Shown: positions 6,228 to 23,916 of the stretch, piece after piece
Layout of the letters: every line of letters starts with the position of its first letter
Position numbering within the stretch: the stretch's first letter is position 1
From: an uncultured Actinomycetes bacterium
GTDB taxonomy: Bacteria; Actinomycetota; Thermoleophilia; Gaiellales; Gaiellaceae
Assembly (NCBI GenBank): GCA_963736055.1
Contig: CAVTNM010000008.1
Coordinates: 1,012,599 to 1,076,598 of the forward strand
Length of the DNA stretch: 64,000 nt
Direction: 5' to 3'
Made by a program: the position numbers and the translations under genes
Notes under the pieces: model-generated
Databases searched by the model: none
The model's input: the letters and a program-made list of their open reading frames with translations, nothing else
What the model was told of the DNA's origin: nothing

Positions 6228-6381
6228 GGCATCTCCTCCTGCTTTGTGCCGTGTGGACTGCCCGCAGTGTCCGCGCGCGTGGGTGCCATTCGCATTGGGG
6301 GCACCCCTAAACCCGCCCCTAAGGTTTCGTTAGCTTGGCTCTACAATTGGCATTTCCGGGTCGTCGATCGGGGATCAAGAC

Positions 6382-9300
6382 GTGAGCGTTCCAGCAATTC
6401 GCGAGGCTTCGACAGGCCTGCCCACGGGCACGGTGACCTTCCTGTTCACCGATATCGAAGGCTCTACCCGGCTGCTCAAGAGCCTGGGCCGCGACCGCTA
6501 CGGCGAGCTGCTGTCCACTCACAACAAGCTGCTTCGCACGGCGTTCACCGAGGGTGGCGGGATCGAGATCGACACCAAAGGGGATTCGTTCTTCGTCGTC
6601 TTCGGCAGCGCCGGCGCGGGGGTCGCCGCCGCCGGGGCCGCTCAGGCCGCGCTGGCAGAGCACGACTGGCCCGAGGGCGCGGAGGTGAGTGTTCGCATGG
6701 GCCTCCACACCGGCGAGGCGAACGTCGGCAGCGACGGGTACGTGGGCTACGCGGTGCACCAGGCCGCACGCATCGGGGACGCGGGGCACGGCGGCCAGGT
6801 GCTCATCTCGAGCACGACCGCCGGCCTCGTCCGCCACGATCTGCCCAGCCAGCTCGAGCTGCGCGACCTGGGCGAGGTCGCACTTCCCGACATCGACCGC
6901 CCGGAGCGGCTCTACCAGCTCGTGGTCCCCGGCCTCCCGGAAGAGTTCCCGCCGCTCTCGGCGCGCGAGAAGGTCCGGCCACGTGCCCCTCGCAGGCGAC
7001 CGGACGTCCAGGTCTCGCGGGTGCCGCTGCTCGAGCGAGAGGCCGAGCTCGCCGCAATGCACGCGGTCGTGGACGCGGCGCACACCGGAGACGGCCGGGT
7101 GATCGCGATCGAAGGGCGTGCCGGGATGGGGAAGACCCGGCTCGTGGCCGAAGCGCGGGCCCTCGCGGACGACGTCGGGTTCGAGGTGCTGGTCGCGCGG
7201 AGCGCCGACCTGGAGCAGGAGTTCGCCTACGGCGTCGTGCGGCAGCTCTTCGAGCCGTACCTGGCCTCGCTCTCGCAAGACGAGCGCGACGAGGTGATGG
7301 CCGGCACCGCGGGCCTCGCCGACCGGCTCTTCGGCGACGAGGAGCTGACGGGGTCGGCCTCGGGCGACGTCTCGTTCGCCGTGCTGCACGGTCTCTACTG
7401 GCTCGCCGCGAACCTGGCCGCACGTCAGCCGACCGCGATCGTGATCGACGACCTGCACTGGACCGACGCTCCCACGCTGCGGTGGCTCACGTACCTGGGC
7501 CGGCGGCTCGAGGGCCTTCCGCTGCTCGTCGTCCTCGGGCTGCGACCGCCCGAACAGGCCGTCGAGGCAGACCTCTTGACCGAGCTGATCTCGGACCCGT
7601 CGGCGCTCGTGATCAGGCCGACCGCCCTCGGGGTGACGTCGGTCGCCTCACTGGCCCTCGAGGAGTTCGGGGTCGAGCCGGAGGAGCCGTTCGTCGTCGC
7701 CTGCCACTCGGCCACCGGCGGCAACCCGCTCTTCCTGCGCGCGATCCTCGACGCACTCCACGGTGAGGGCTTCTCGCCGACGGCCGAGAACGCGCACCGG
7801 GTGCGCCAGATCGGGCCCGAGTCGGTCACGCGCGCCGTGACGCTGCGGCTTTCGCGGCTTCCTACGGAGGCGAGGCGGCTGGCCGCGGCGGTCGCCGTCC
7901 TCGGCGGCGACGCCGAGATCGGTGACGCCGCCGCGCTCGCGGAGCTCGACGACCGGCACCTCGCCTCGCTTGCTGCGACCGCTCTAGCCCGCACCGACCT
8001 GATGCGCGTGTCGAGCCTGAACATCGAGTTCGTCCACCCTGTCGTTCGCGCCGCCGTGTACGAGTCGATCGACCCGGGGCAGCGACTGACGGCGCATCGG
8101 CGCGCCGCTCAGCTCCTCGACGAAGGCGGCGCCGAGCCGGAGCACGTTGCCGCTCACCTCGACCTGGTGCACCCGGCGGTCGACCCCTTCGTGGTCGAGA
8201 CGCTTCGCGTCGCGGCCGACCGGGCGCTCGTTCGCGGCGCCCCGGAGGCGGCGGTCCGTTATCTGCGGCGCGCGCTGGCCGAGCCGCCGCTCGAGGAAGT
8301 GCGCGTGGACACGCTGCTGGAGCTCGGCCTCGCCGAGCAGCGCGTCGATATCGCCAGCGCGTCCGAGCATCTGGCCGAGGCGCTCGAGGCGATCGAAGAG
8401 CCGTTGCGGCGCGCGCGAGTCGCTCTCGAGCTCGGCCGCTCGCTCTTCCGCCTCAACCGCGGCCCCGAGGCCGTGTGGGTGTTCGAGGACGCGATCACGC
8501 GGCTGAGCGACTCGGAGCCGGAGCTCCGGGAGATGCTCGAGGCCGAGCTGATCAACTCCGCGGGCTTCGACACCGCCGTGATCGACGTCTCGCGCGAGCG
8601 GATCCTCCGCATCGACGAGGAGGCCCTCGTCGGGGAGGTCGGGAGCGCCGTGATGAGGGCGACCCTGCGCTACTTCGACGCTCGGTCCGGCACCAACCGC
8701 GATGCCGTCTGGGGGCTCGCGGAGCCGAGGGTGATCGCCGCCCTGGTCGACAGCATGCCGTCCGTGGCCATCTCCTGTGCCGCGGCCGCCCTCATGTACG
8801 CGGAGGATCCGGTGGCCGTCGATCGCTTCTTCGACGCGGTCATGAAGGCGGCGAAGGAACGCGGCGAGCTCGTCACGCTCTCGAACATGCTCTGCTTCCG
8901 CGGGCTCACGCTCGCCCAGCGCGGCGACCTCGATTCGGCGATGTGCGACCTGCGCGAGTCCGACGAGCTGGTCCCGTATCTGCCGACCCAGCAAGGCGCG
9001 ATCTACTTCCACTCCTACCTGGCCGACGTCCTCACGAACCGCGGCGAGCTCGACGAGGCCGAGCGCACCCTGGCCAAGCTCGGCCTGCCGGAGGAGGTGG
9101 CCGAGAGCGGGCACCTGATCTTCTTCCTCGGCGCGCGCGGCTGGCTGCGGCTCGCAAGCGGCAACGCTGCCGGCGCACGCGACGACTTCGAGCGCCTGGG
9201 CCGGTGCATGGAGGCCTTCGGGCTGCGCAACCCGGCTTTGGTGGCCTGGCGCACGCATCTCGCGCTGGCGCTCATCGCTCTCGACCGCCGCGACGAGGCA

Positions 9301-13525: not shown

Positions 13526-14542
13526 TCAACTCGCCGCGAGCCCGGCGACCGTAGCGGGGACACCTTCGAACTCGCCCACGGGCGCGAGGCTGCCGTCGTC
13601 GCCGACCGTCCAGCCGAACACCCGCTGCGCGTCCGCGTCGATCGCGTAGAGGTGACGGCCGTCTCGGCTGATCGCCTCGTCGCGGATGCCCTTCTCGCCG
13701 AGCCGGGTCGAAGCGGCGACCGGCTCGAGCAACTCGATGCTGCCGTCGCCGCCGATCGCGTAGCTCGAGATCGTCCCGTCGCCGAAGTTCGTCACGTAGG
13801 CAAAGCGCCCGTCGTTCGTGATGGCGGCCCAGCAGACCTCGCTCCGCGTGTCGCCGATCGAGGCGCTGACCGGTGCCAGCCGGCCGGGCTCGTCGATCGA
13901 GTAGGAGGATGCCGCGGCAGCGCCGACCTCGCCGCCGAAGGCCTCCGTCACGATCACGGCGCCCTCCGCGAAGCCGAAGCCGTAGGGCGTGGCGCCCGAG
14001 GAGGCGATCGTGGCCGGGCCGTCCGCCTTCCCGCGCTCGTCGATGGTGAACGTGCTGATGCTGTTCGTGCCCCGCTCGGTGACGACGATCGTCCGTCCGT
14101 CTGGGCTGAATGCGATCTGCGCCGGATCGGCGCCGTCCTCGAGTTTCCTCGACGAGCCGACCAACGGAGTTAGGGCGCCGCCCGCGAGCGAGAAGCCGCT
14201 GATCCCGGGCTCGCCGTTGTTGAGGACGTAAGCGATCTCGCCGTGCGCCGCGATGCTGGTCGGCGTCCTCCCGCCGGAAGGTGCCGTTGCCACGAGCAGC
14301 AGCCCGTCGGGCTCGACTTCGAACAATGAGATCTCGTCGCTGCCGGTGTTCGTGACCAGCAGCAGCGTGCCGTCGTCGTTCAGCACCACCGAGCTCTGCG
14401 ACGGCAGATGCGGCTTGCCGGTCCCGCGCCCGCCGGTGTCAAAGGTGCCCAGCTGCTCGAGCCGGCCGTCGGCCGAGCGGTCGAACGCGACGATCTCGTT
14501 TCGCTTCGCGTCGTTCGTCTGTACGTAGATCCGTTCGGTCAT
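13526..14542 (-). CDS. Lactonase-family (YncE/6-phosphogluconolactonase-like) beta-propeller protein
   Basis: 338 aa. Repeated motifs: ...GG.GT.HL....DG..L.V.N..S..IS.F, and FSPDGRTIVVTERGTNSISTF. Confidence 0.8.
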   Translation of the reverse strand: MTERIYVQTNDAKRNEIVAFDRSADGRLEQLGTFDTGGRGTGKPHLPSQSSVVLNDDGTLLLVTNTGSDEISLFEVEPDGLLLVATAPSGGRTPTSIAAHGEIAYVLNNGEPGISGFSLAGGALTPLVGSSRKLEDGADPAQIAFSPDGRTIVVTERGTNSISTFTIDERGKADGPATIASSGATPYGFGFAEGAVIVTEAFGGEVGAAAASSYSIDEPGRLAPVSASIGDTRSEVCWAAITNDGRFAYVTNFGDGTISSYAIGGDGSIELLEPVAASTRLGEKGIRDEAISRDGRHLYAIDADAQRVFGWTVGDDGSLAPVGEFEGVPATVAGLAAS

Positions 14543-14608
14543 CTCGTTCCTTTCGCGACCCCGTGATTGCCAACTACGTCACGGCTGGAGCCTCAGCGTT
14601 ACGCGGCG

Positions 14609-15730
14609 CTAGCGACGCGGGACGATGAAGGCCGCGCTCCCGATGCTCCGGTAGTTGGCGAACGAGCGCCTTCCGATGCCCTCCCAGACGTACCAGCGGT
14701 ACTTCGCATGTGTGAGGCGGTAGCGGTGGCCGGCCCAGCGCCAGGTGTCCGGGAGCACCAGCTCGGGCCGGTTCGGCCAGGCCGCCAGCACACGCTTTGC
14801 GCCCCGGAAGAGCTGTACGTGGTAGTAGGTGGCGCCGCGCGCAGCCGGCCAGCGGAGCACCGGGTTGGCCGCAGCCCGCGGGGTGTACGGCGTCTTGCGG
14901 AGCGTCAGGACCTTGGGGAGCGCGACCGCCGAGACCGCCTTCGAGGCATTCCCCGCCTGGTCGTAAGCCTGGAGCGAGTAGACGTACTCGAGGCCTCTCT
15001 GGATCTTGGTGTCGGCGTAGCTCACGGCGGTTCCCTTGAACACGGTCGCCTGCGCCTTGTTTCCTCGTGCCGACCGGCGGACGAGCACCGTGTCCGACGG
15101 GCTCGTCGAGGCCCAGTGCAGGAGCTCGGAGCCGGCGCGGCTCGTTACCCCGACCTTGCTCAGGGCCGGAGCCGTCGCGTCGTAGTGCAGGCCGAAGGCG
15201 TTCGCTCCGGTGTTCCCGGCCTTGTCCCGGCAGACGCCGGCGACGGCCGCGTTCGCGCTGTCCGGGCCTTTGTAGGTCATCTGGGAGCACGACGCGATCC
15301 CCGAGCCTCCGTCGGTCCCGGCGAACGTCACGGCGACCGGGTGGTTGTACCAGCCGTTCGCGTCAGGGGCCCGCTGCGGCTTGGCGGTCGTGACGAGCGG
15401 GGCTGTCTTGTCGATCTTGATCGTGACCGAACGCGACGCGGGCACTCCGTTGATGTCGACGGCCGCGCACGACTGCACGCTCCCGGCTGTGTCGTTGAAC
15501 AGCGTTGTCGACACGCAGCCGCTCGTGGCCATCCCGTCTGTCACCCAGACGATGCGCACGGTGGAGCGATACCAGCCGTTGTCCCCCTGGGTGGCGGTCA
15601 GCGTGTACGAGATGTCGGGTCCCGCGGCGGCGGCTGCGGAGACAACGACACCGGAGACCACGATTAGGGCGAGCGCAAGCGGGACTCGTGTCCCGATCCG
15701 CCGCAGCAACGGAGTCGGATTCCTACGCAT
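14609..15730 (-). CDS. Secreted protein with Ig-like/fibronectin-III-like domains
   Basis: ATG 15730 preceded by GGGAGGGG. Signal peptide MRRNPTPLLRRIGTRVPLALALIVVSGVVVSAAAAA. GWYRSTV/GWYNHPV motifs, a YVYSLQAYDQAGN (FN3-like) motif and a Trp/Tyr-rich C-terminus. Confidence 0.65.
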   Translation of the reverse strand: MRRNPTPLLRRIGTRVPLALALIVVSGVVVSAAAAAGPDISYTLTATQGDNGWYRSTVRIVWVTDGMATSGCVSTTLFNDTAGSVQSCAAVDINGVPASRSVTIKIDKTAPLVTTAKPQRAPDANGWYNHPVAVTFAGTDGGSGIASCSQMTYKGPDSANAAVAGVCRDKAGNTGANAFGLHYDATAPALSKVGVTSRAGSELLHWASTSPSDTVLVRRSARGNKAQATVFKGTAVSYADTKIQRGLEYVYSLQAYDQAGNASKAVSAVALPKVLTLRKTPYTPRAAANPVLRWPAARGATYYHVQLFRGAKRVLAAWPNRPELVLPDTWRWAGHRYRLTHAKYRWYVWEGIGRRSFANYRSIGSAAFIVPRR

Positions 15731-15781
15731 GGCCCCTCCCGAGTGCTCTCTTGAAAGCATAACTCGCTGCAAATCGGGTTG

Positions 15782-16660
15782 TCATTGCTGCCTCGGATAC
15801 GCGAGCGGCGCCGGCGGAGCGCTATGGCTGCTCGGTGCGGGAAGCGGCGCCGGGCCGCCCCCGCTGGGTGACGGAGTGCTCGGACGCTGGGTCGCGGTCG
15901 ATGTCGCGGGCGCGGTGGTGGTGCGAACGACCTGAACCGCCAGGTCGCGGCCGGACTGGGACGTGTTCGGGCGGACGGGCGGCGAGACGCGGCGAACCCT
16001 CCGCCGGATCGGCCGCGCAGGCTTCGTTTTCGCACGGGTGACGCTGGGCCTGGGCGTGCTGACCGCGTCGCGGGCGGCCGTTCGGTTGTCCGGAGCCGCG
16101 ACGGCGCGTCCGGCCGGTGTGTGCCGGTTGTGCTGGAAGACGGCACCGGCGACTCCGAGGAGCACTGCCGCGGAGACGGTCGCGACAGCTGCCCAGCGCA
16201 AGAGCGGCCGGAAGGAGGGTGTTGGCCGACGGCGCGGCGCCGCTCGGGCGGGCCGGGAGAACCCGAGGTCCGCAGCCCAGAAGCCGATTCCGCCGTAGCG
16301 GCTGGCTGCCACGTAGAGGTCGGTATGGCCGGCCGCCTTGAAGTCGCCGGCCGAAGGCCACGTCGTCCGGCTGCCGCAGAACTCGACGAGAGCCGCACGA
16401 ATGCGCTTGTTCGTCCAGTGGCGCTGGGAGGGCTGCGACCGGCGCGGCAGGCGGTAACGGGTCGAACGTCCGCCGCCGAGCCGCTCGACCAGGCCGGCCT
16501 GGACGAGCTCCGCGAGATCGTAGGCAGCCTGCGAGCGGCTCACCCCGGTGAGCTGCTGGTACTCCCCGCGCGTGAGCTCTTCGGCCGTTCCCTCGTTCAG
16601 GGCGGCCAACGCGTCCCGCTGTGCGGGCTTCAACTCGTTTCGACCGGCCCTGTGCGGCAT
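15782..16660 (-). CDS. Membrane-tethered winged-HTH protein with Pro-rich extracytoplasmic tail
   Basis: N-terminus ELTRGEYQQLTGVSRSQAAYDLAELVQAGLVERLGGGRSTRYRL (Fic-C-terminal-type wHTH). WTNKRIRAALVEFCG...DFKAAGHTDLYVAASRYGGIGFWAADLGF repeat. One TM segment (LLRWAAVATVSAAVLLGVAGAVF), then a P/T/R-rich tail. Confidence 0.6.
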   Translation of the reverse strand: MPHRAGRNELKPAQRDALAALNEGTAEELTRGEYQQLTGVSRSQAAYDLAELVQAGLVERLGGGRSTRYRLPRRSQPSQRHWTNKRIRAALVEFCGSRTTWPSAGDFKAAGHTDLYVAASRYGGIGFWAADLGFSRPARAAPRRRPTPSFRPLLRWAAVATVSAAVLLGVAGAVFQHNRHTPAGRAVAAPDNRTAARDAVSTPRPSVTRAKTKPARPIRRRVRRVSPPVRPNTSQSGRDLAVQVVRTTTAPATSTATQRPSTPSPSGGGPAPLPAPSSHSAPPAPLAYPRQQ

Positions 16661-16812
16661 CGTGCCCTCCCCAGGTCACGCAGAAGCCGTGCAGGTCCAA
16701 CTGTAGCGCAGTTTCGGCGAAACGATAGATCCGAGCCATCGCCGGCCGGTTGAAATCGCGATTTTCACCGCTCCAGGCCGCGAAACGTCGCATTCTCAGG
16801 GCTCTGGAGGCT

Positions 16813-16842
16813 TTCGTCCAACCGCCTGAGCTATTCGTCCAA
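16813..16842 (+). promoter_or_regulatory. Direct repeat TTCGTCCAA-N12-TTCGTCCAA (21-bp phase) in a low-GC divergent intergenic region
   Basis: Exact 9-mers at 16813-16821 and 16834-16842. The surrounding region 16780-16985 is visibly AT-richer than the rest of the window. Confidence 0.3.
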
Positions 16843-16988
16843 TGAAATGTTGTTAGAAATGTTTTACGCCTCTGGATTTGATTGTAAACGTAAGCGCTAG
16901 AGTCGTGAATTCGCAAAAGATTAGTGGAAATCACGGAGTCACTCTGGTAGCCTCAATTACGGCAGTCGAGTTTCTTACGCGCGTGAAA

Positions 16989-18014
16989 ATGGAGACCGTG
17001 ACCTCTTCGCCCCGCCCGCGCCTCCTCGGATGGCGAGCTCGCCTGTGCCTCGCGGCCGCGCTGTGTGCGCTGTATCCGCTGGCGGCGGCAGGCACTGCGA
17101 TGGCGGACGATGTGGTGCCGACGCTCCCGCCGCTCACGCAGAGCGCCACGACGGATCAGGGATCGGCCGCAAACGGCGTGGTTACGCAGTCTGGAGCCGA
17201 CAACCTGGTGATCTCGATCCGCATCGACAGCCCGGGCAACGACGGCCCGATCTCCCAGTCGAATCTCGCGACGGGCGCGGTCGGAGCCGGAAACGGCAGC
17301 GGCACGTCGCAGGCCGGCGGAGCCCAGCCGGGCGGCAGCCAGCAGGCCGCGACCGGGCAAGAAGCAGGTGCAACGGGCGAGGTTTCGCAGTCCCAACCGA
17401 AAAATGTCGTCATTTCCGTTCGAGTCAACAGCCCGGGCAACAACGGACCGATCGCGCAGACGAACATCGCGGGCGTGGGCGTTGATGCGATCAACGGAAG
17501 TGCCACCGATCAAGCGGGCGGAAAGCCCGCCGGGGAGACGCCCAGGACAGCAGTGCCTCGAGCGCACCCCTTGCGGCACGGAGCAGCGCCCGCCGAGGCA
17601 GCTCGCGGCACGAAGACCGCTGCAGAGGCACGCAGCAGTCAGCCGGCGCCTCGGCGGAGCGCTCCCGCACCCCATCCCGCCGTAAGCCAGGCGGAAAAGT
17701 CGCTCGGGCGGCCGGTCAGCGGAGCCGCAGCCGCTCAAACCGCCGGTTTTCCGGCGGCGGCCGCCCGGGCGTCCGGTAACGAACAAGCGCCACGGCACGC
17801 TGCACAGGCCGGCGCGCTTCGGCGCGCGGCGGCGACCGTTCTCGGGCCGGTCGAGCGCGTGCGGCTCCCGGCGGTGACCCCGCCGGCCGGTCAGCGGGCC
17901 GAGGGGGCCGGCCTGCTGACCCTCAGTGCCGTCGCGTTGCTCGGAGCACTGCTCGTGTGGCTCGTTTCGTCGCGGGTGGGACCGCTTCGCACCGCCCGGG
18001 GACGGCGGGCATGA
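16989..18014 (+). CDS. Secreted repeat protein P1 (SPGNxGPIxQxN repeats, Ala/Pro stalk, C-terminal TM anchor)
   Basis: ATG 16989. Signal peptide ending AMA|DD. NLVISIRIDSPGNDGPISQSNLA and NVVISVRVNSPGNNGPIAQTNIA repeats. C-terminus LLTLSAVALLGALLVWLVSS..RGRRA. Confidence 0.6.
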   Translation: METVTSSPRPRLLGWRARLCLAAALCALYPLAAAGTAMADDVVPTLPPLTQSATTDQGSAANGVVTQSGADNLVISIRIDSPGNDGPISQSNLATGAVGAGNGSGTSQAGGAQPGGSQQAATGQEAGATGEVSQSQPKNVVISVRVNSPGNNGPIAQTNIAGVGVDAINGSATDQAGGKPAGETPRTAVPRAHPLRHGAAPAEAARGTKTAAEARSSQPAPRRSAPAPHPAVSQAEKSLGRPVSGAAAAQTAGFPAAAARASGNEQAPRHAAQAGALRRAAATVLGPVERVRLPAVTPPAGQRAEGAGLLTLSAVALLGALLVWLVSSRVGPLRTARGRRA

Positions 18015-18847
18015 GGAACCGGACGAATAGCGGCGGTCGATTGGACGATTACGGACGAAACCGCAGCACCCAAGCCGATCTCGGCCCCCGTTGCAACACG
18101 CTTCTGAAGGGCTGCGCGGTAGCCGTCGCAGTCCTGGCCGCGGCCAGCCTGCATGTCGGCTCCGCGCGGGCGGCCGGCGAGGCGGTCCCGACCGACCTTT
18201 CCGCACAGGTCGACGAAATCGTCTCGTCGGCGCTCGCCACGGCGCAGGCACCCTCGAGCGAGGCGCCGGCCAGGGCGACGAATCTCGTCAACCAGGCCAT
18301 GGCGCTCGCCAACAACGCCGCTGCGGAGGCGACAGCGAGGGCAGCGCCGCTGGTGCCCCAGAGCGCCGGCGCGGAGGTGCCGGTCTCGACCGCGGCCTCG
18401 AACGAGCTCGGCACGCCTGCGCGCACGCCGCCTGCGCGGTCGCGTCACGCGCGCGCGAGGAAACACGCCCATGCGCCGGCGCCTCGCCCAAAGACCCAGG
18501 CTCGGACGATTCCGGGCTTCGCCCCCTCTCACGGCTCCGCGCTCTCAACCTCTCCCCCCACGGCGAGGTCTTTGTCGTTCTCGCCGAAGCGAGCGGCGAA
18601 GACCTCGCCGCGCCCGGAGCGCTCGGCGCCGCCCGAGCATCCGCGGCCGCCGGGGCCGATGCCTCCGAGACCGGATGCCTCGTCGGCCGGCCAGAGCGGG
18701 GGCCAGAACGCGCCGGTGCCGCTGTTACTTGCGGTGGTGCTTGGTGTGTTGCTCGTCTTTGGATTCCAATTTCTGCCTCGCCTGCTTCCGTTATTGGCCT
18801 TCCGGAAGCCGAGGCGCATCGTTCTCCCCTCCTGGCACCCGGGCTGA
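18011..18847 (+). CDS. Secreted/anchored Ala- and Pro-rich protein P2
   Basis: ATG 18011 overlaps the P1 stop (ATGA). Hydrophobic leader CAVAVAVLAAASLHVGSARA. C-terminal TM segment PLLLAVVLGVLLVFGF. Low complexity, so the frame is less certain. Confidence 0.5.
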   Translation: MRNRTNSGGRLDDYGRNRSTQADLGPRCNTLLKGCAVAVAVLAAASLHVGSARAAGEAVPTDLSAQVDEIVSSALATAQAPSSEAPARATNLVNQAMALANNAAAEATARAAPLVPQSAGAEVPVSTAASNELGTPARTPPARSRHARARKHAHAPAPRPKTQARTIPGFAPSHGSALSTSPPTARSLSFSPKRAAKTSPRPERSAPPEHPRPPGPMPPRPDASSAGQSGGQNAPVPLLLAVVLGVLLVFGFQFLPRLLPLLAFRKPRRIVLPSWHPG

Positions 18848-18949
18848 CGCCCTTCTCCGGCCATACGGAGCGTGCCGTTCTGCGACGGCGCGCCGACGTA
18901 CGCGCGCTGTTCTGCGACAGCGCGTAGCCCCTACGACCAAGGAGAAGGG

Positions 18950-20983
18950 ATGAAAGCCATAGTGATGAGCGTGGCCGTGGTGCTTGCCGCACTCGCCATT
19001 GCTCCCGCGGCGTTCGCCGACGGCTCCGGTGGTCCCGGTGGTGCGCAAGCCGGGATCCAGGCCGCGTCGACCGTCCAGGGAGCCTTAGGCGTGGCGCTGA
19101 GCCACCAGAACGCGGTCAACGCCAACGTGCCCGTGAACATCGCCGGCGGCAACATCACCGCCGCCGGTCCGAGCACGGCCACCCAGATGGCCACTTCGAG
19201 CGCCAACGCGGACGTCTCGAACAAGGCCAAGACCGATCAGGACCAACACCTCACTCAGAACATCGGCGGCTCCGGCTGTGTGGCCGGATGCGGCGGTGCG
19301 GGAGGATTCCAGGCCGGGGTCCAAGCAGCCGACACCAAGCAGATTGCCGTCGGGGCCGCCAAGAGCGACCAGAACGCAGTGAACGCGAACGTGCCCGTGA
19401 ACATCGCGGGCGGAAACGTCAACTCCGGCCCGAGCTCGGCGACGCAGACGGCGAACTCGACGGCCAACACGAACGTCAAGAACAAGTCCAAGACCGACCA
19501 GCATCAGACGCAGGATCAGAACATCGGTGGTAGCGGCTCCTGCAAGCTCGGTTGCGGCGGTGCCGGCGGCTTCCAGGCCGGCGTCCAGGCAGCCGACACG
19601 AAGCAGGCCGCGCTGGGGATCTCCGACAGCCACCAGAACGCAGTGAATGCCAACGTGCCCGTGAACATCGCGGGCGGCGACATCAACTCCGGCCCGAGCT
19701 CGGCGACGCAGACGGCGAACTCGACGGCCACCACGAACGTGAAGAACAAGTCGAAGACCGACCAGGACCAGCACCTCACCCAGAACATCGGCGGCTCAGG
19801 CTGCTACGCGGGTTGCGGTGGTCCAGGCGGCTTCCAGCTCGGTGTCCAGAAGGCCGACACCCAGCAGCTGGCGCTCGGATTCTCAAAGAGCGACCAGAAC
19901 GCGGTCAACGGCAACTCGCCGGTCAACATCGCCGGAGGTGACATCAACTCCGGGCCGAGCTCGGCGACGCAGACGGCGACGTCCACCGCGGACACCGACG
20001 TCGAGAACAACGCCAAGACCGACCAGGATCAGGGGCTGAACCAGAACATCGGCAACAGCGACATGAAGGCCCCGGTCCTGTGCTCCTGCGAGGGGAGAAA
20101 CAAGGACAAGGTCGGCCGTCAGGATCATCGGAAGAACGGCAAGTACGGCAAGAAGGGCCGCAAGAACGGCTCGCCCAGCCGCACTGCCAGCCCGATCGGC
20201 AACAACAGCTCGGTCAGCCCGATCGGCAACAACAGCTCGGTCAGCCCGACCGGCAACAACAGCTCGGTCAGCCCGACCGGCAGCAACAACTCGGTCAGCC
20301 CGACCGGCAACAGCCGCACCGCCTACCCGCTCGGCAACAACGCGCGCCGGAGCGGGACGCTCGGCAACGAGGCCAGCAAGGGCAGCCCGAACGACAAGGG
20401 CAGCGGCAACAACAGCGGGTCCGGCGGCATCCCGGACGCCCAGAGGGCTAGCCGCAAGGGCGGCTGCGTCGTCGGTTGCGGCGGCGCGGGTGGGTTCCAG
20501 CTCGGGATCCAGGGCGCCGAGACCAAGCAGGGTGCGCTCGGCATCGCGAAGAGCCACCAGAACGCCGTCAACTCGAACGCACCCAGCTCGGTAGCCGGGA
20601 AGGACATCGACTCCGGCCGCGCCCCGAGCAGTGCGACGCAGACGGCGACGTCGTCCGCGAACGCGGACGTCAAGAACAAGGCGAAGACGGACCAGGACCA
20701 GGACCTCCACCAGAACATCGGCGACTCCGGCTGCGTGGCCGGCTGCGGCGGTGCGGGTGGGTTCCAGGCCGGGGTCCAGCTGTCCAAGACGGAACAGCTC
20801 GCGCTCGGGTTCGGCATCAGCGACCAGAACGCGGTCAACGGCAACGCGCCGCACTCCGTAGCCGGAGGGAACATCTACGACGGCGGGAGCAACGCGACGC
20901 AGACAGCGACGTCGACTGGTAAGACTGACGTCAAGAACAAGGGCAAGACCGACCAGAACCAGTGGGAGGACCAGCTGCTCTGA
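18950..20983 (+). CDS. Secreted 677-aa Q/N/T/G-rich protein P3 with six repeats of about 82-88 aa, each bounded by a CxxxC pair
   Basis: AAGGAGAAGGG RBS before ATG 18950. Signal peptide ending AFA|DG. Repeat unit: GGSGC.AGCGGAGGFQAGVQAADTKQ.A.G...S.QNAVNANVPVNIAGGN.NSGPSSATQTANSTANTNVKNKSKTDQDQ.L.QNI. Confidence 0.75.
   Translation: MKAIVMSVAVVLAALAIAPAAFADGSGGPGGAQAGIQAASTVQGALGVALSHQNAVNANVPVNIAGGNITAAGPSTATQMATSSANADVSNKAKTDQDQHLTQNIGGSGCVAGCGGAGGFQAGVQAADTKQIAVGAAKSDQNAVNANVPVNIAGGNVNSGPSSATQTANSTANTNVKNKSKTDQHQTQDQNIGGSGSCKLGCGGAGGFQAGVQAADTKQAALGISDSHQNAVNANVPVNIAGGDINSGPSSATQTANSTATTNVKNKSKTDQDQHLTQNIGGSGCYAGCGGPGGFQLGVQKADTQQLALGFSKSDQNAVNGNSPVNIAGGDINSGPSSATQTATSTADTDVENNAKTDQDQGLNQNIGNSDMKAPVLCSCEGRNKDKVGRQDHRKNGKYGKKGRKNGSPSRTASPIGNNSSVSPIGNNSSVSPTGNNSSVSPTGSNNSVSPTGNSRTAYPLGNNARRSGTLGNEASKGSPNDKGSGNNSGSGGIPDAQRASRKGGCVVGCGGAGGFQLGIQGAETKQGALGIAKSHQNAVNSNAPSSVAGKDIDSGRAPSSATQTATSSANADVKNKAKTDQDQDLHQNIGDSGCVAGCGGAGGFQAGVQLSKTEQLALGFGISDQNAVNGNAPHSVAGGNIYDGGSNATQTATSTGKTDVKNKGKTDQNQWEDQLL
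19022..20050 (+). repeat. Four tandem intragenic repeats of about 246-264 nt (P3 repeats 1-4)
   Basis: Repeats 2 and 3 are about 93% identical over a 133-nt block that I compared base by base (19369-19501 vs 19632-19764). Confidence 0.8.
20189..20314 (+). repeat. 27-nt tandem repeat, about 4.6 copies, encoding SP[IT]GNNSSV
   Basis: agcccgatcggcaacaacagctcggtc x2, then agcccgaccggcaacaacagctcggtc and diverged copies. In frame within P3. Confidence 0.85.
20458..20980 (+). repeat. P3 repeats 5-6 (diverged copies of the 87-aa unit)
   Basis: GGCVVGCGGAGGFQLGIQGAETKQ... and GDSGCVAGCGGAGGFQAGVQLSKTEQ... Confidence 0.75.
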
Positions 20984-21000
20984 TCGGGTAGGTCAAGCGT

Positions 21001-21028
21001 GGAGGGCCGCACGCCGCAGCGGCCCTCC
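21001..21028. terminator. Bidirectional hairpin between convergent genes
   Basis: ggagggccgc-acgccgca-gcggccctcc (10-bp stem), followed by atctcttatctcc. It lies 18 nt after the P3 stop and 6 nt from the stop at 21034. Confidence 0.6.
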
Positions 21029-21033
21029 ATCTC

Positions 21034-22389
21034 TTATCTCCGGGCGACGGCGATCAGCGTCGGCGTCGTCCTGCCGCCGCTGCGGGGTCGCAGGATCGTC
21101 ACGTAGGCGGTCGTGTCCGAGAGCGCGGTCGTCCAGAGGATCCGCGCCGTCGGCCTCGGCCGGTGCGGGCACGGGACGCGCTCGCCCTGGCTCGTGTGGC
21201 CTTCCTCGTGGCCCCGGTCCTGGCCGGCCAGGGGTGGCAGCTCGTAGAGGACGCGATCCTTTCCGCCGCGCAGCGGGCCGAGCCGCAGCTCCTGGGCGCA
21301 GCGGGAGACGCGGACGTAGAGGAGGCTCGACCCGAGCAGGGACGGGTTGAGGAGCTGGGCGTCGCGTGAGAACCGCACACGCCGTCTCGTTCCGTCGGCG
21401 ACGTTCACCGCCGTCAGCCAGCTGCCGCCCGCCGTGGAGTAGTGGTAGACGACGAGGTCGCCGTCGAGGGCCGGCCTGCCGAGCTCCGCGACCCGCTTCG
21501 CCTCGACCACGAGCGCGCTCCGGCTCGTGTCGCTCAGCGCCTGCACGCGGATCTGGCGGCCGCTGCGCCAGACGAGCCAGCGGTCGGAGACCGCCAGCTT
21601 CTGCGCTCCGGGGATCGACTCCTGGACGACCGGGGCGAGGGTGTCCCGCGAGGCCACCGTGACGGTCGGGCCGGAGCGCCAGGCGACGAGAGCCCCGCCG
21701 ATCGCCGGGTCGTTCCCGGGGAGCTGCGCTCGAAGGCCGCTGCGCGAGAGGAAGCCCCCGACACCCGGCTGCTGCCAGGCGAGATCGGCGCCCGCTGCGC
21801 TCGGGTCGCCCCCGTGCGCCGCGACGGTTCCGGCGGCCTTGACCTCGCCTGCGGCGAGCGCCAGCAGGAGCGAGGCCGCGATCAACGCACGTAGTGCCCG
21901 CAGCCCCATGGGCCGCTCGGCGAGGACGGTCTCTTCGCCCCGCGCGGCGAGCACGAGCACCGGCACCGCGCGGCCGAGCGCGAACCCGAGCCCGATCGCG
22001 AGCGAGCCGGTCACGCTGCCGAGCGCCAGCCCGAGTGCCGGGAGCGCCCAGGCGGCGGTCGCGGGCACGTAGGTGGAGAGACCGGTCCCGAGCAGCAGCC
22101 CGTAGAGAAGGAGCGCGAGCGGGAGCGGCATCGTCCGCCGCCAGGGCTCCGGCACCTGGAAGTGGATCTGCGGGCGCACGCGTAGCCCGGCCGCGTCGCT
22201 CAGGATCGCCGCCGCCGCGACCGCCAAGGCCACGACGACGATGGCACGTGACTGCACCGCCTCGCCGAGCAGGCCGAGCACGCCGAAGACCAGCGCCGCG
22301 CCGAGCGCAAGGCCGACGGCGAAGGCGGCCGCGGTCAGCGCAAAGGCTCGTCGTCCGTCCTGGCGTGCGGCACTCACGGTGCCGACCAT
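21034..22389 (-). CDS. Polytopic membrane domain (DsbD/CcdA- or MauF-like?) fused to an extracytoplasmic beta-propeller-like domain
   Basis: N-terminal 190 aa with 5-6 TM segments and RPQIHFQVPEPWRR. The C-terminal 260 aa carry repeated strands: LAWQQPG, ALVAWRSG, RWLVWRSG, DLVVYHYS, SLLYVRVS, TAYVTIL. Confidence 0.6.
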   Translation of the reverse strand: MVGTVSAARQDGRRAFALTAAAFAVGLALGAALVFGVLGLLGEAVQSRAIVVVALAVAAAAILSDAAGLRVRPQIHFQVPEPWRRTMPLPLALLLYGLLLGTGLSTYVPATAAWALPALGLALGSVTGSLAIGLGFALGRAVPVLVLAARGEETVLAERPMGLRALRALIAASLLLALAAGEVKAAGTVAAHGGDPSAAGADLAWQQPGVGGFLSRSGLRAQLPGNDPAIGGALVAWRSGPTVTVASRDTLAPVVQESIPGAQKLAVSDRWLVWRSGRQIRVQALSDTSRSALVVEAKRVAELGRPALDGDLVVYHYSTAGGSWLTAVNVADGTRRRVRFSRDAQLLNPSLLGSSLLYVRVSRCAQELRLGPLRGGKDRVLYELPPLAGQDRGHEEGHTSQGERVPCPHRPRPTARILWTTALSDTTAYVTILRPRSGGRTTPTLIAVARR

Positions 22390-22457
22390 CGAGAGGCTTC
22401 AGGGCGACCAGGCGCCCGCCAGCCCGACGAGCAGCCCGGTCAGCGAGAGCGCCGCGG

Positions 22458-23027
22458 TCAGCACTTGATCTTCGTGTCGTAGTACATGACGCAGAAGACC
22501 CTGCGGCCGCTGTAGCAGTAGCCCGTGAGCGCGGCGTCGCCGTTGATCCGGTGGCGGACCGCGCCACAGCAGTCGACGAGCTTGCGTACGTGGCCGCCGC
22601 AGCAGCGGTACCACGCTCCGTCGATCTGCGGGCGGAAGCCGAACTCCCGTCCGGCGGCCGTGCAGACGCGTGTCCGCGCCGCCGGTGGGAGCGGATTGCC
22701 GTCGGGATCGCGCAGGAGGCCGCCGCCGGGCGCGACGGGCCGGCCGCGAGCGTCGATCGGGCGACCGAGGTCGTCGACCGGCTTCCCGTCGGCGGCGCGC
22801 AGCGGGAAGCCGTTGCGGTCGATCCGGGGCAGGCCGACCGGGTGCGGGCAGGAGCCGGTCGTGTAGATGTGGCCGCAGAAGTGGTAGGCCTCGGCCTTCT
22901 GGGCGCGCAGGGCCGCTGCGAGGAAGCCTCCGCCGGTCACGCCGAGGAGCAGTCGCCCCGCCCGGGCGATGAACCCTCGCCGCGAGGTCGAGCCGGCGAC
23001 GGCCTCGCTGAGCCTGAGGTCAGGCAC
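22458..23027 (-). CDS. Tat-exported, 10-Cys methylamine-dehydrogenase-light-chain (MauA)-like protein
   Basis: GTG 23027 overlaps the upstream stop (GTGCCTGA). Twin-arginine leader STSRRGFIARAG. YHFCGHIYTTGSCPHP...AWYRCCGGHVRKLVDCCG...GYCYSGRRVFCVMYYD aligns by eye with MauA blocks CDYWRHCS..C.C / AYRDCCGY / WCFG..TYHC. Confidence 0.65.
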   Translation of the reverse strand: MPDLRLSEAVAGSTSRRGFIARAGRLLLGVTGGGFLAAALRAQKAEAYHFCGHIYTTGSCPHPVGLPRIDRNGFPLRAADGKPVDDLGRPIDARGRPVAPGGGLLRDPDGNPLPPAARTRVCTAAGREFGFRPQIDGAWYRCCGGHVRKLVDCCGAVRHRINGDAALTGYCYSGRRVFCVMYYDTKIKC

Positions 23028-23916
23028 CCACGGGTCTGGTCGCGTGTGCGATGAGGCTCTCCAGCTGGAAGAGCGAGTTGAACGTGCCCTTCGCGAGCAC
23101 CTCGCCGTCGCGGCCGAGCACGACGCCGTAGGGGCTTCCCGGCACGCCCAGCGACGACCAGGCCTCCGCATCGGCCTCCTCGTCGAAGAGCTCGAGCTCC
23201 ACCTCGGGATCGGTGGCGACGAGTCGCAACGAGGGCTCGAGCGCGCGGCAGAGGGCGCAACCCGCGGAGGTGAAGACCGCGACCGCGAGCGGCGCGCGGC
23301 CCTCGAAGCGGTCGATCAGCCCGACTCGCCCCCCGAGCTCCGGCCCCTCGTGGTCGAGCGACAGGGCGGCCTGCGGGGCGACGGCGAGACGCAGCTCCCC
23401 GAGCTCGCGGGCGAGCGCGAGCACCGCGACTGCGACCGCGACCAGGCCGAGGAGCGACAGGACGAGGCCCGCGCCCAGCCAGGCCTCGGTCGACGGCTTC
23501 GTGTCCGGAAGGAAGGCGACCGCCGCGGCTCCGGCTGCCAGGAGCGCGGTGCGCGTGAAGGCCGGCCACCCGATCCGCGAGCGGCCGCCGAAGCACCCGC
23601 AGGGCGCGCCCGCTCGTCCACGGAGGATCGCGAGCGCGAGTGCCGAGGCAAAGACGCCGAACAGGACGGCAGCCGCCCCGGCCGCGCCGGGAACATCGGC
23701 GGCGAGGGCGACCGCGATCCCGATCTCGGCGACGATCGTCGCGGTCCACAGAGTGGCACGCGAGCGGACGGATCCGATCCCGTAGGAGCGCAGTGCATCG
23801 CGGCCGGAACGGCCCGAGGCGAGCTTCGCCGCCGCGGAGACGAGCAGCACGGCGGCCAGCAGGAACCGGAGAAGACCCACGACGGTCAAGCGGGCGGGAG
23901 GATACATAGCGCCCAT
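23020..23916 (-). CDS. MauE/DoxX-like membrane domain fused to a thioredoxin-fold (MauD/TlpA-like) domain
   Basis: 4 TM segments with the GAPCGCFGG motif. C-terminal domain AVAVFTSAGCALCRALEP...LGVPGSPYGVVLGRDGEVLAKG (CxxC). An alternative ATG is at 23907. Confidence 0.7.
   Translation of the reverse strand: MGAMYPPARLTVVGLLRFLLAAVLLVSAAAKLASGRSGRDALRSYGIGSVRSRATLWTATIVAEIGIAVALAADVPGAAGAAAVLFGVFASALALAILRGRAGAPCGCFGGRSRIGWPAFTRTALLAAGAAAVAFLPDTKPSTEAWLGAGLVLSLLGLVAVAVAVLALARELGELRLAVAPQAALSLDHEGPELGGRVGLIDRFEGRAPLAVAVFTSAGCALCRALEPSLRLVATDPEVELELFDEEADAEAWSSLGVPGSPYGVVLGRDGEVLAKGTFNSLFQLESLIAHATRPVGA

Follow-up and report, generated by a model that had tools for sequence, protein, structure and literature searches.

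The window analysed here, a stretch of 64,000 nucleotides from an uncultured Actinomycetes bacterium of the Gaiellaceae (contig CAVTNM010000008.1), carries three co-oriented genes, P1, P2 and P3, which span 16989-20983 on the plus strand and which, as profile comparisons indicate, use one repeat family in both an anchored and a secreted protein. P1 (16989-18014) encodes 341 amino acids (aa) comprising a signal peptide, two modules of the type termed classical below, an Ala/Pro/Arg stalk, a C-terminal transmembrane segment and a basic tail. Its stop codon overlaps the start codon of P2 (18011-18847; 278 aa) in the sequence ATGA, and P2 in turn consists of a signal peptide, an Ala/Pro-rich stalk, a C-terminal transmembrane segment and a conserved tail. 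P3 (18950-20983; 677 aa) lies directly 3' of a strong ribosome-binding site (RBS), AAGGAGAAGGG, and is composed of a signal peptide (18950-19018), six repeat units and a variable linker. An operon with these positions, the overlap and the RBS had been described in an initial annotation made from the sequence alone, and both its coordinates and its couplings were reproduced. The annotation had also named a low-GC upstream region of about 330 nt, which was measured as 328 nt (16661-16988) with 52% GC, compared with approximately 70% locally.

Hydropathy analysis displayed signal-like N-terminal segments in all three proteins, while C-terminal transmembrane segments were confined to P1 (aa 304-333, about 17898-17987) and P2 (aa 230-264, about 18698-18802). 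The builds proposed earlier for these two proteins were thus recovered, in the case of P1 with the additional aid of module analysis. A motif scan for LPXTG or L[PA]x[TAS]G found no sortase motif outside the signal peptide, as had been claimed. The description of three Q/N/T/G-rich repeat proteins, by comparison, is appropriate for P3 and part of P1 and fails for P2, the composition of which is Ala/Pro/Arg-rich. The reading frames of all three genes are backed by homologue conservation and by frame-specific GC content at third codon positions (GC3), inspected by hand for the Ala/Pro-rich genes, which a crude GC3 gene caller misses; for P2, GC3 is highest in the annotated frame. A terminator-like hairpin with a 12-bp stem containing 9 GC pairs is located at 20999-21030 on the plus strand, 16 nt past the P3 stop codon, and no terminator-like sites were observed on the plus strand between P1, P2 and P3.

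Repeat units of P3 and their kinship with P1

The six units of P3 are located on the plus strand at 19007-19267 (aa 20-106), 19268-19528 (aa 107-193), 19532-19792 (aa 195-281), 19793-20053 (aa 282-368), 20456-20722 (aa 503-591) and 20723-20980 (aa 592-677), the last of which ends at the C-terminus of the protein. They measure 86-89 aa and share 64-79% identity with unit 2; in the gene, Tandem Repeats Finder (TRF) detected a period of 261 nt with 3.6 copies and a score of 1029. The earlier count of six repeats is therefore sound and requires one correction, in that the units are split 4 + 2 by a linker of 134 aa (20054-20455, plus strand). The linker is K/R/G/S-rich and variable, and contains five copies of SP[TI]GNNSSV, encoded by a 27-nt tandem repeat at 20188-20341 on the same strand (TRF 4.6 copies, 95% matches). 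Among close homologues having the same linker the copy number of this motif varies from 2 to 5, implying that the segment expands and contracts quickly. Two metagenomic homologues, P0050 and P0057, have inter-unit "linkers" of another kind, Arg/Pro/Gly-rich and resembling out-of-frame translations of the repeat, which probably reflect assembly frameshifts inside a repetitive gene.

Conservation was analysed in an alignment of 777 units from 120 homologues and the window protein, the consensus of which is SSCYAGCGGAGGFQAGVQKAETNQWALGAAKSDQNAVNANVPVSIAGGNISSGPSSATQTATSNATTDVSNKAKTDQDQHLTQNIG. It can be observed that in two stretches of the consensus, Q15-Q35 and S56-Q84, alternate residues are near-invariant (Q, G, A, T, S, N) and the positions in between are variable. 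Mean identity at the conserved parity is approximately 95% in the N-terminal arm and approximately 91% in the C-terminal arm, with values of approximately 43% and 56% at the other parity. Such alternating invariance is the signature of long beta strands of which one face is constrained. Furthermore, the two Cys residues of a CxxxC pair are jointly present or jointly absent in 754 of 755 non-first units, and first units almost always lack both (21 of 22 scored). In P3 of the window the pair is missing solely from repeat 1, exactly as first reported.

The modules of P1 occupy 17136-17315 (aa 50-109) and 17334-17516 (aa 117-176) on the plus strand. Their core, NxV[IV]S[IV]R[IV]xSPGNxGPIxQxN, is invariant in 24 homologues, and the 38 P1 homologues found are all hypothetical proteins. 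The relationship of these modules to the P3 units became apparent through distant relatives recovered with the P3 unit profile (P0228, P0242, P0263 and P0289), which carry "classical" units of the form GIQxxxQxAxxxQxAxAxSxAxQ..xxNxNxPxRVxSxGxxGxVxQSNxxxSxAxAxNxNxTxQ, that is, the motif of the P1 modules. A bridge profile built from 46 classical units matched the P1 modules with an hhalign probability of 98% (E 1e-13) and, in hmmsearch, with independent E-values (iE) of about 1e-10 to 1e-12 for both modules. The same profile matched P3 at 96.6% (E 5.6e-10), with iE of 1e-6 to 1e-9 for all six units, which reach iE of 1e-34 to 1e-42 against their own family profile. Bridge scores were 38.4 bits for P1 and 28.0 bits for P3, compared with a maximum of 5.4 bits in 300 composition-preserving shuffles. 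On this profile evidence the P1 modules and P3 units are members of one repeat superfamily, linked through the classical relatives. Inside the 64-kb window the repeat is confined to P1, with two units, and P3, with six. The earlier suggestion that a membrane-anchored protein could act as anchor or nucleator for the soluble repeat protein gains support here, since the modules of P1 appear homologous to the P3 repeat via the bridging family.

Distribution, conserved gene order and partner genes

P3 has 370 detectable relatives, all unannotated, and the few named ones are metagenome-assembled genomes (MAGs) of the Gaiellaceae. The six-unit profile of the window protein matches only 157 of 1.84 billion representatives of 50%-identity clusters. 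Seventy loci were obtained from GTDB species genomes, belonging to the Gaiellaceae, Gaiellales, Thermoleophilaceae, Solirubrobacterales, Solirubrobacteraceae, Conexibacteraceae and unclassified Actinomycetota MAGs, with the sole exception of one 4.6-kb contig binned as Polyangia. The classical type forms a larger family, with 1,202 matches among 8,000 candidates scored, distributed in the Gaiellaceae and Thermoleophilaceae and all hypothetical. Counting both repeat types, more than 1,500 relatives were found, none of them annotated. Pfam and NCBIfam scans of P1-P3 and the distant relatives provided nothing usable (for P1-P3, no Pfam families at E <= 0.1), and text searches of the literature for Gaiella or Thermoleophilia amyloid or for the repeat motifs returned nothing relevant. 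Queried with P3 alone, the PDB sequences yielded only TRIM15 at E 1.7, which was rejected as spurious. Profile match, signal peptide, tandem units of 75-90 aa and alternating Q/A/S/T/N, the features by which an unnamed Thermoleophilia long-arm QxAxTxQ superfamily may be defined, are all present. Judged from these comparisons, P1 and P3 belong to a repeat-protein system that is genuine, conserved and entirely without annotation, best filed as a secreted beta-repeat subunit with an anchored paralogue.

The pairing of the two proteins recurs: of the 78 loci scanned, 39 encode two classical-type modules followed by 5-20 units, and one of the two classical-type loci is among these 39. Gaiellales-type loci keep a conserved order in which two minus-strand genes, Ig387 and HTH292, precede P1, P2 and P3 on the plus strand. 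Conservation of P1/P2/P3 together, which the initial annotation had left to be checked, is observed in approximately 20 such loci, and the 4-nt overlap of P1 and P2 recurs in locus L075. In four loci of one sub-lineage a LuxR/GerE-type response regulator is inserted between P1 and P2 (L003, at about 6300-6940, and L004, L006 and L013).

P2 is conserved in an uneven manner. Its open reading frame and C-terminal motif are found in 20 loci, and in 14 of these 20 the frame ends 68-85 nt before P3. The tail that follows the transmembrane segment (AFRKPRRxVLxxWHPG-stop, within 18698-18847) is nearly invariant in the 20 loci, while the remainder of the protein diverges. The two-module proteins of classical-type loci likewise end in ...RDRPG. 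Such a tail may represent a signal for sorting or interaction that has so far escaped notice.

Ig387 (14609-15772, minus strand) encodes a predicted signal-anchored, Ig-like/fn3-like surface protein with weak matches to Big_13, MXAN_2561_fam and OmpL47 and a hydrophobic N-terminal segment at aa 25-55. A homologue adjoins the repeat gene in 55 of 74 P3-type loci, lying in Gaiellales upstream on the minus strand and in Solirubrobacterales on the plus strand, approximately 4 kb downstream; both classical-type loci (L077 and L078) contain homologues with 37-41% identity. The earlier statement that dedicated assembly genes are absent consequently needs revision. HTH292 (15782-16660, minus strand) encodes a membrane-anchored winged helix-turn-helix (HTH) regulator with a DIP2311-like_C match (E 7.9e-9), weak MarR/ArsR matches and a single transmembrane segment at aa 152-177. 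It is transcribed divergently from P1, and its position is conserved in Gaiellales-type loci. In the other Thermoleophilia loci examined, both P3-type (L030 and L057) and classical-type (L077 and L078), a sigma-70-family gene takes its place, and such a gene stands upstream of the repeat gene in the Solirubrobacterales-type loci examined.

Between HTH292 and P1, the divergent intergenic or promoter region contains a direct repeat, TTCGTCCAA, at 16813-16821 and 16834-16842, the starts of which are 21 nt apart. Among 18 aligned loci, at least 85% retain the repeat blocks, and the element is a candidate operator for the neighbouring HTH292. A single sigma-70-like match was found in the intergenic region, on the minus strand at 16909-16881, and an Rfam search of the region gave no match.

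The classical Thermoleophilia repeat proteins (P0228, P0242 and P0289) are, by profile, true homologues of the system, and the P1 modules are of their type. Their cassettes follow the same logic. In L077 and L078 the minus strand carries the regulator, a sigma gene, together with a HicB-like membrane protein, and the plus strand encodes a two-module transmembrane-anchored protein of 534-541 aa, a multi-unit secreted repeat protein, a small Pro-rich protein anchored by a C-terminal transmembrane segment and an Ig387 homologue. The conserved synteny of Ig387 and a regulator indicates that the functional unit is larger than three genes and is conserved class-wide. Differences exist in the tip of the unit, which in the P3 units is derived and reads NAVNANVPVxIAGGNxxSGPSS, and in the classical ones reads NxNxPxRVxSPGxDGxVxQSN, and in the Cys residues, present as CxxxC in nearly every P3 unit and as CxC in alternate classical units, from which a two-unit super-repeat follows for the latter. 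As the classical relatives are all uncharacterised, they provide no functional information. In P0228, P0242 and P0289 a His or Asp often accompanies the CxC motif (SSCGCHGSDGG, DGHDCGCGP), which is found in every other unit and at times at the tip of the hairpin, a pattern that suggests either unusual disulfides or metal sites.

Predicted fold, known systems and a possible surface assembly

A model of P3 residues 1-368, comprising four units, was obtained with AlphaFold2 (AF2) from 41 sequences. It is all-beta, with a predicted local distance difference test score (pLDDT) of 56.8 and a predicted template modelling score of 0.56. Each unit displays two strands of approximately 30 residues joined by a short meander, and the last unit is modelled with a higher confidence of 70-83. 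For two units modelled from a mixed multiple sequence alignment the result was worse (pLDDT 40.6). Foldseek of the AF2 model against the PDB found no neighbour, the template modelling score being below 0.1 throughout. Its non-significant top list contained only parallel beta-solenoids, namely SufD, CsgA 8c50, an ice-binding protein, FapC 9u4u (E 0.44) and pectate lyases.

Covariation provides a further view of the unit. For P3-type units alone, mean-field direct coupling analysis (DCA) was too shallow at an effective sequence number (Neff) of 58, and only the Cys-Cys coupling emerged. In the 1,203 units of the classical type (Neff 448), the strongest antidiagonal lay at i+j = 83 and drew mainly on conserved-face pairs, (17,66), (21,60-62), (34,48-50), (25,58) and (27,56). 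This pattern supports a unit with two long antiparallel arms, which would touch through the invariant face. Mapped by hand onto P3 numbering via the hhalign alignment, the register would place a large Gln opposite a small Ala or Gly (Q35-A62, A37-Q60, G17-Q80), which would suit tight face-to-face packing. The amyloid-like or beta-solenoid character first proposed for the proteins is accordingly retained in part: P3 is predicted to be all-beta with a strict two-residue conservation period, and stacking as a solenoid and amyloid character remain proposals at this low pLDDT and with no Foldseek neighbour.

The observation that the motifs match neither curli nor chaplins was confirmed, as no model of either matched in the Pfam scan; judged by sequence, the locus belongs to neither family. 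Curli, with CsgA as major subunit and CsgB as surface-bound nucleator, are alike in combining a Sec-secreted, Q/N/S/G/A-rich imperfect beta repeat, with a conserved face of Gln, Asn and small residues, and a shorter cell-bound paralogue; the counterpart of the latter would be P1, transmembrane-anchored and with two units that appear homologous to P3 via the bridge family. Curli repeats, however, measure 19-23 aa (Sx5QxGxGNxAx3Q), compared with 86-89 aa in P3, and TRF detects no period of approximately 66 nt. The host here is a monoderm actinobacterium, Cys pairs are present and the anchor is a transmembrane helix on a stalk. Curlin_rpt PF07012 did not match P1, P2 or P3 in Pfam at E <= 0.1, and hhalign of the P3 unit profile with the E. 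coli CsgA sequence gave a probability of 0.4%. Pfam and NCBIfam scans of the flanking genes at 13526-23916, the sole neighbourhood scanned, revealed no CsgE/F/G-like genes. The only match of a combined unit profile in the PDB was CsgA 8enq (E 0.051, 16.8 bits), which is below significance and a lead only.

The chaplins of Streptomyces are hydrophobic proteins with a conserved Cys pair in the chaplin domain; the long ChpA-C have two such domains and a sortase signal, and the short ChpD-H are secreted. The likeness lies in the Actinomycetota host, the two-domain cell-anchored and secreted paralogues of one domain, and the Cys pair. The locus differs in having no PF03777 match and no LAXTG/LPXTG, and P3 is a hydrophilic multi-unit polypeptide rather than a single-domain hydrophobic peptide. 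The Fap amyloid of Pseudomonas (FapC/FapB) similarly has a repeat-plus-linker major subunit and a shorter paralogue, and FapC is among the weak Foldseek matches. The sequences do not match, no structural match is significant, a FapF-type transporter is lacking and the lineage is another.

We tentatively propose that the system forms an anchor-templated, homotypically stacking, beta-rich surface assembly, a proposal that may well be right and is slightly more apt to be wrong. One repeat family used in two forms would build the assembly at the cell surface. P3 would be the abundant, Sec-secreted building block, with which its strong RBS is consistent. Each 87-aa unit would comprise two antiparallel beta arms of approximately 25-30 residues that meet at the invariant face of small and polar residues (Q, A, T, S, G, N). 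The arms would be joined by the short tip NANVPVxIAGGN, and the base would be closed by the Gly-rich CxxxC loop, probably as a disulfide. Successive units may then pack side by side into a continuous beta-rich body. P1, whose two homologous units would sit on an Ala/Pro stalk that spans the wall and ends in a C-terminal transmembrane segment, would tether P3 and possibly template or seed it by homotypic unit pairing. P2 would be a second stalk and transmembrane protein with a conserved cytoplasmic tail, and Ig387 a conserved accessory. Expression would be controlled by the locus-specific, membrane-bound HTH regulator, which may couple it to an envelope or environmental signal; elsewhere in Thermoleophilia a sigma factor would serve instead.

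In favour of the proposal stand the two-residue periodicity, the joint behaviour of the Cys residues, the bridged homology and recurrent pairing of P1 and P3, the conserved operon with a hairpin only past P3, the topology signals, the all-beta model and the covariation of the arms; the non-significant Foldseek and CsgA matches point the same way. Several results weigh against it. P3 is very hydrophilic, with a grand average of hydropathy of -0.56, and its units each bear same-charge Lys columns, which are unusual for in-register stacks. Direct comparison of the P1 modules with the P3 units was collinear and not significant (hhalign P 0.02-0.05; -1.4 bits), so that the homology of P1 and P3 is only transitive. 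In about half of the 78 loci the scan, at its threshold, picked up no P1-type modules upstream. The AF2 confidence is low in both runs, and the Foldseek result counts on the same side. Outer-face charge covariation, which could distinguish an H-bonded hairpin from a face-to-face beta-arch, gave no signal either way, and the units may pack either as a parallel solenoid or arch or as one antiparallel meander sheet. Furthermore, no cultured representative was identified.

The strongest alternative is that of a non-polymerising adhesin or wall coat, in which P3 would be a monomeric, elongated beta protein, released or loosely wall-bound, and P1 a shorter anchored paralogue with the same binding, with neither templating nor a fibre; we consider it unlikely. 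The finite number of units with distinct ends, the first without Cys and the last at the C-terminus, recalls capped solenoid adhesins, and the hydrophilic composition and the 4 + 2 division by the linker are in its favour, as is the label "trimeric autotransporter adhesin" that sister proteins receive from some annotation pipelines, although this is a likeness in name only. The invariant small/polar face, by contrast, is typical of buried packing rather than of ligand binding, and no known adhesin domain was detected in the Pfam and NCBIfam scans. The strict pairing of a two-unit anchored and a multi-unit secreted paralogue, conserved across the class, also argues against simple adhesion.

In its boldest form, the proposed anchor-templated assembly would be a hitherto unknown class of Gram-positive functional amyloid or beta-solenoid confined to Thermoleophilia, an abundant and barely cultured class of soil bacteria. 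Its 87-residue beta-arch rungs would have arms of approximately 30 residues zipped via the Gln/Ala/Ser/Thr face and stapled by a Cys-loop disulfide, and a paralogue of two rungs, anchored in the membrane, would seed the stack and tether it. This form is doubtful. If true, it would represent an independently evolved solution of the curli/chaplin type, with rungs about four-fold wider than those of any known functional amyloid.

It is improbable that P3 self-assembles into an S-layer-like two-dimensional lattice, that is, a planar coat tethered via the P1 and P2 stalks. Two stalked membrane anchors are at hand, P3 looks abundant and secreted given its strong RBS, and its very long arms, about 10 nm if extended, would give it a plank-like shape. 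The number of units, however, ranges from 5 to more than 20, which is ill-suited to a fixed lattice, and the Pfam scan found no SLH or other S-layer anchoring domain; moreover, Cys-rich S-layer proteins are uncommon. A hydrophilic matrix, desiccation protectant or ice, mineral or metal binder, with the polar face or Cys motifs as functional surface and not core, is equally hard to credit, since it would leave the anchored paralogue unexplained, neither His nor Asp accompanies the Cys loop of P3-type units and the conserved face is Ala/Gly-rich and paired arm to arm by covariation, suggesting that it is buried, even if the composition rich in Q, N, S, T, G, K and D, the soil origin of the organisms, the likeness of the CGC(H) and DGHxCGCG motifs of sister proteins to metal sites and the ice-binding protein in the non-significant Foldseek list point towards it.

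Thermoleophilia, with the Gaiellales and Solirubrobacterales, are among the commonest soil Actinomycetota, and to our knowledge little is known of their cell surface. At least 70 species-level genomes contain the cassette. Should it indeed form an anchored fibre or coat, the result would be an envelope structure that defines the lineage and bears on adhesion, on the aggregation of soil or on survival of desiccation. An anchored paralogue seeding a secreted one would then be known from a further, independent case, and structural biologists and protein designers would gain a new beta repeat architecture with long arms. Whatever the mechanism, a new domain family could be annotated with the unit profiles.

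Flanking genes

Downstream of P3, a three-gene cluster occupies 21034-23916 on the minus strand. It encodes a 451-aa membrane protein of unknown family (d451), a Cys-rich protein of 237 aa, which bears a twin-arginine-like signal and weakly matches TIGR02659 (methylamine dehydrogenase small subunit, E 0.03), and a fusion of MauE (PF07291, E 3e-17) with a thioredoxin-like domain. The cluster resembles a methylamine dehydrogenase-like apparatus for maturing a Cys-crosslinked cofactor protein, and in Gaiellales its synteny near the repeat locus is kept. The three genes were considered as members of the repeat system and rejected, as they lie on the opposite strand and unrelated genes intervene in two of the loci (L001 and L002). 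On the other side of the locus, a 7-bladed beta-propeller lactonase (PF10282, E 1.4e-24) is encoded at 13526-14542 on the minus strand. In related genomes the lactonase gene is found across the repeat locus, beside Oxidored_molyb, FAD-NAD and DUF6510 genes, implying a local rearrangement in the lineage of the window.

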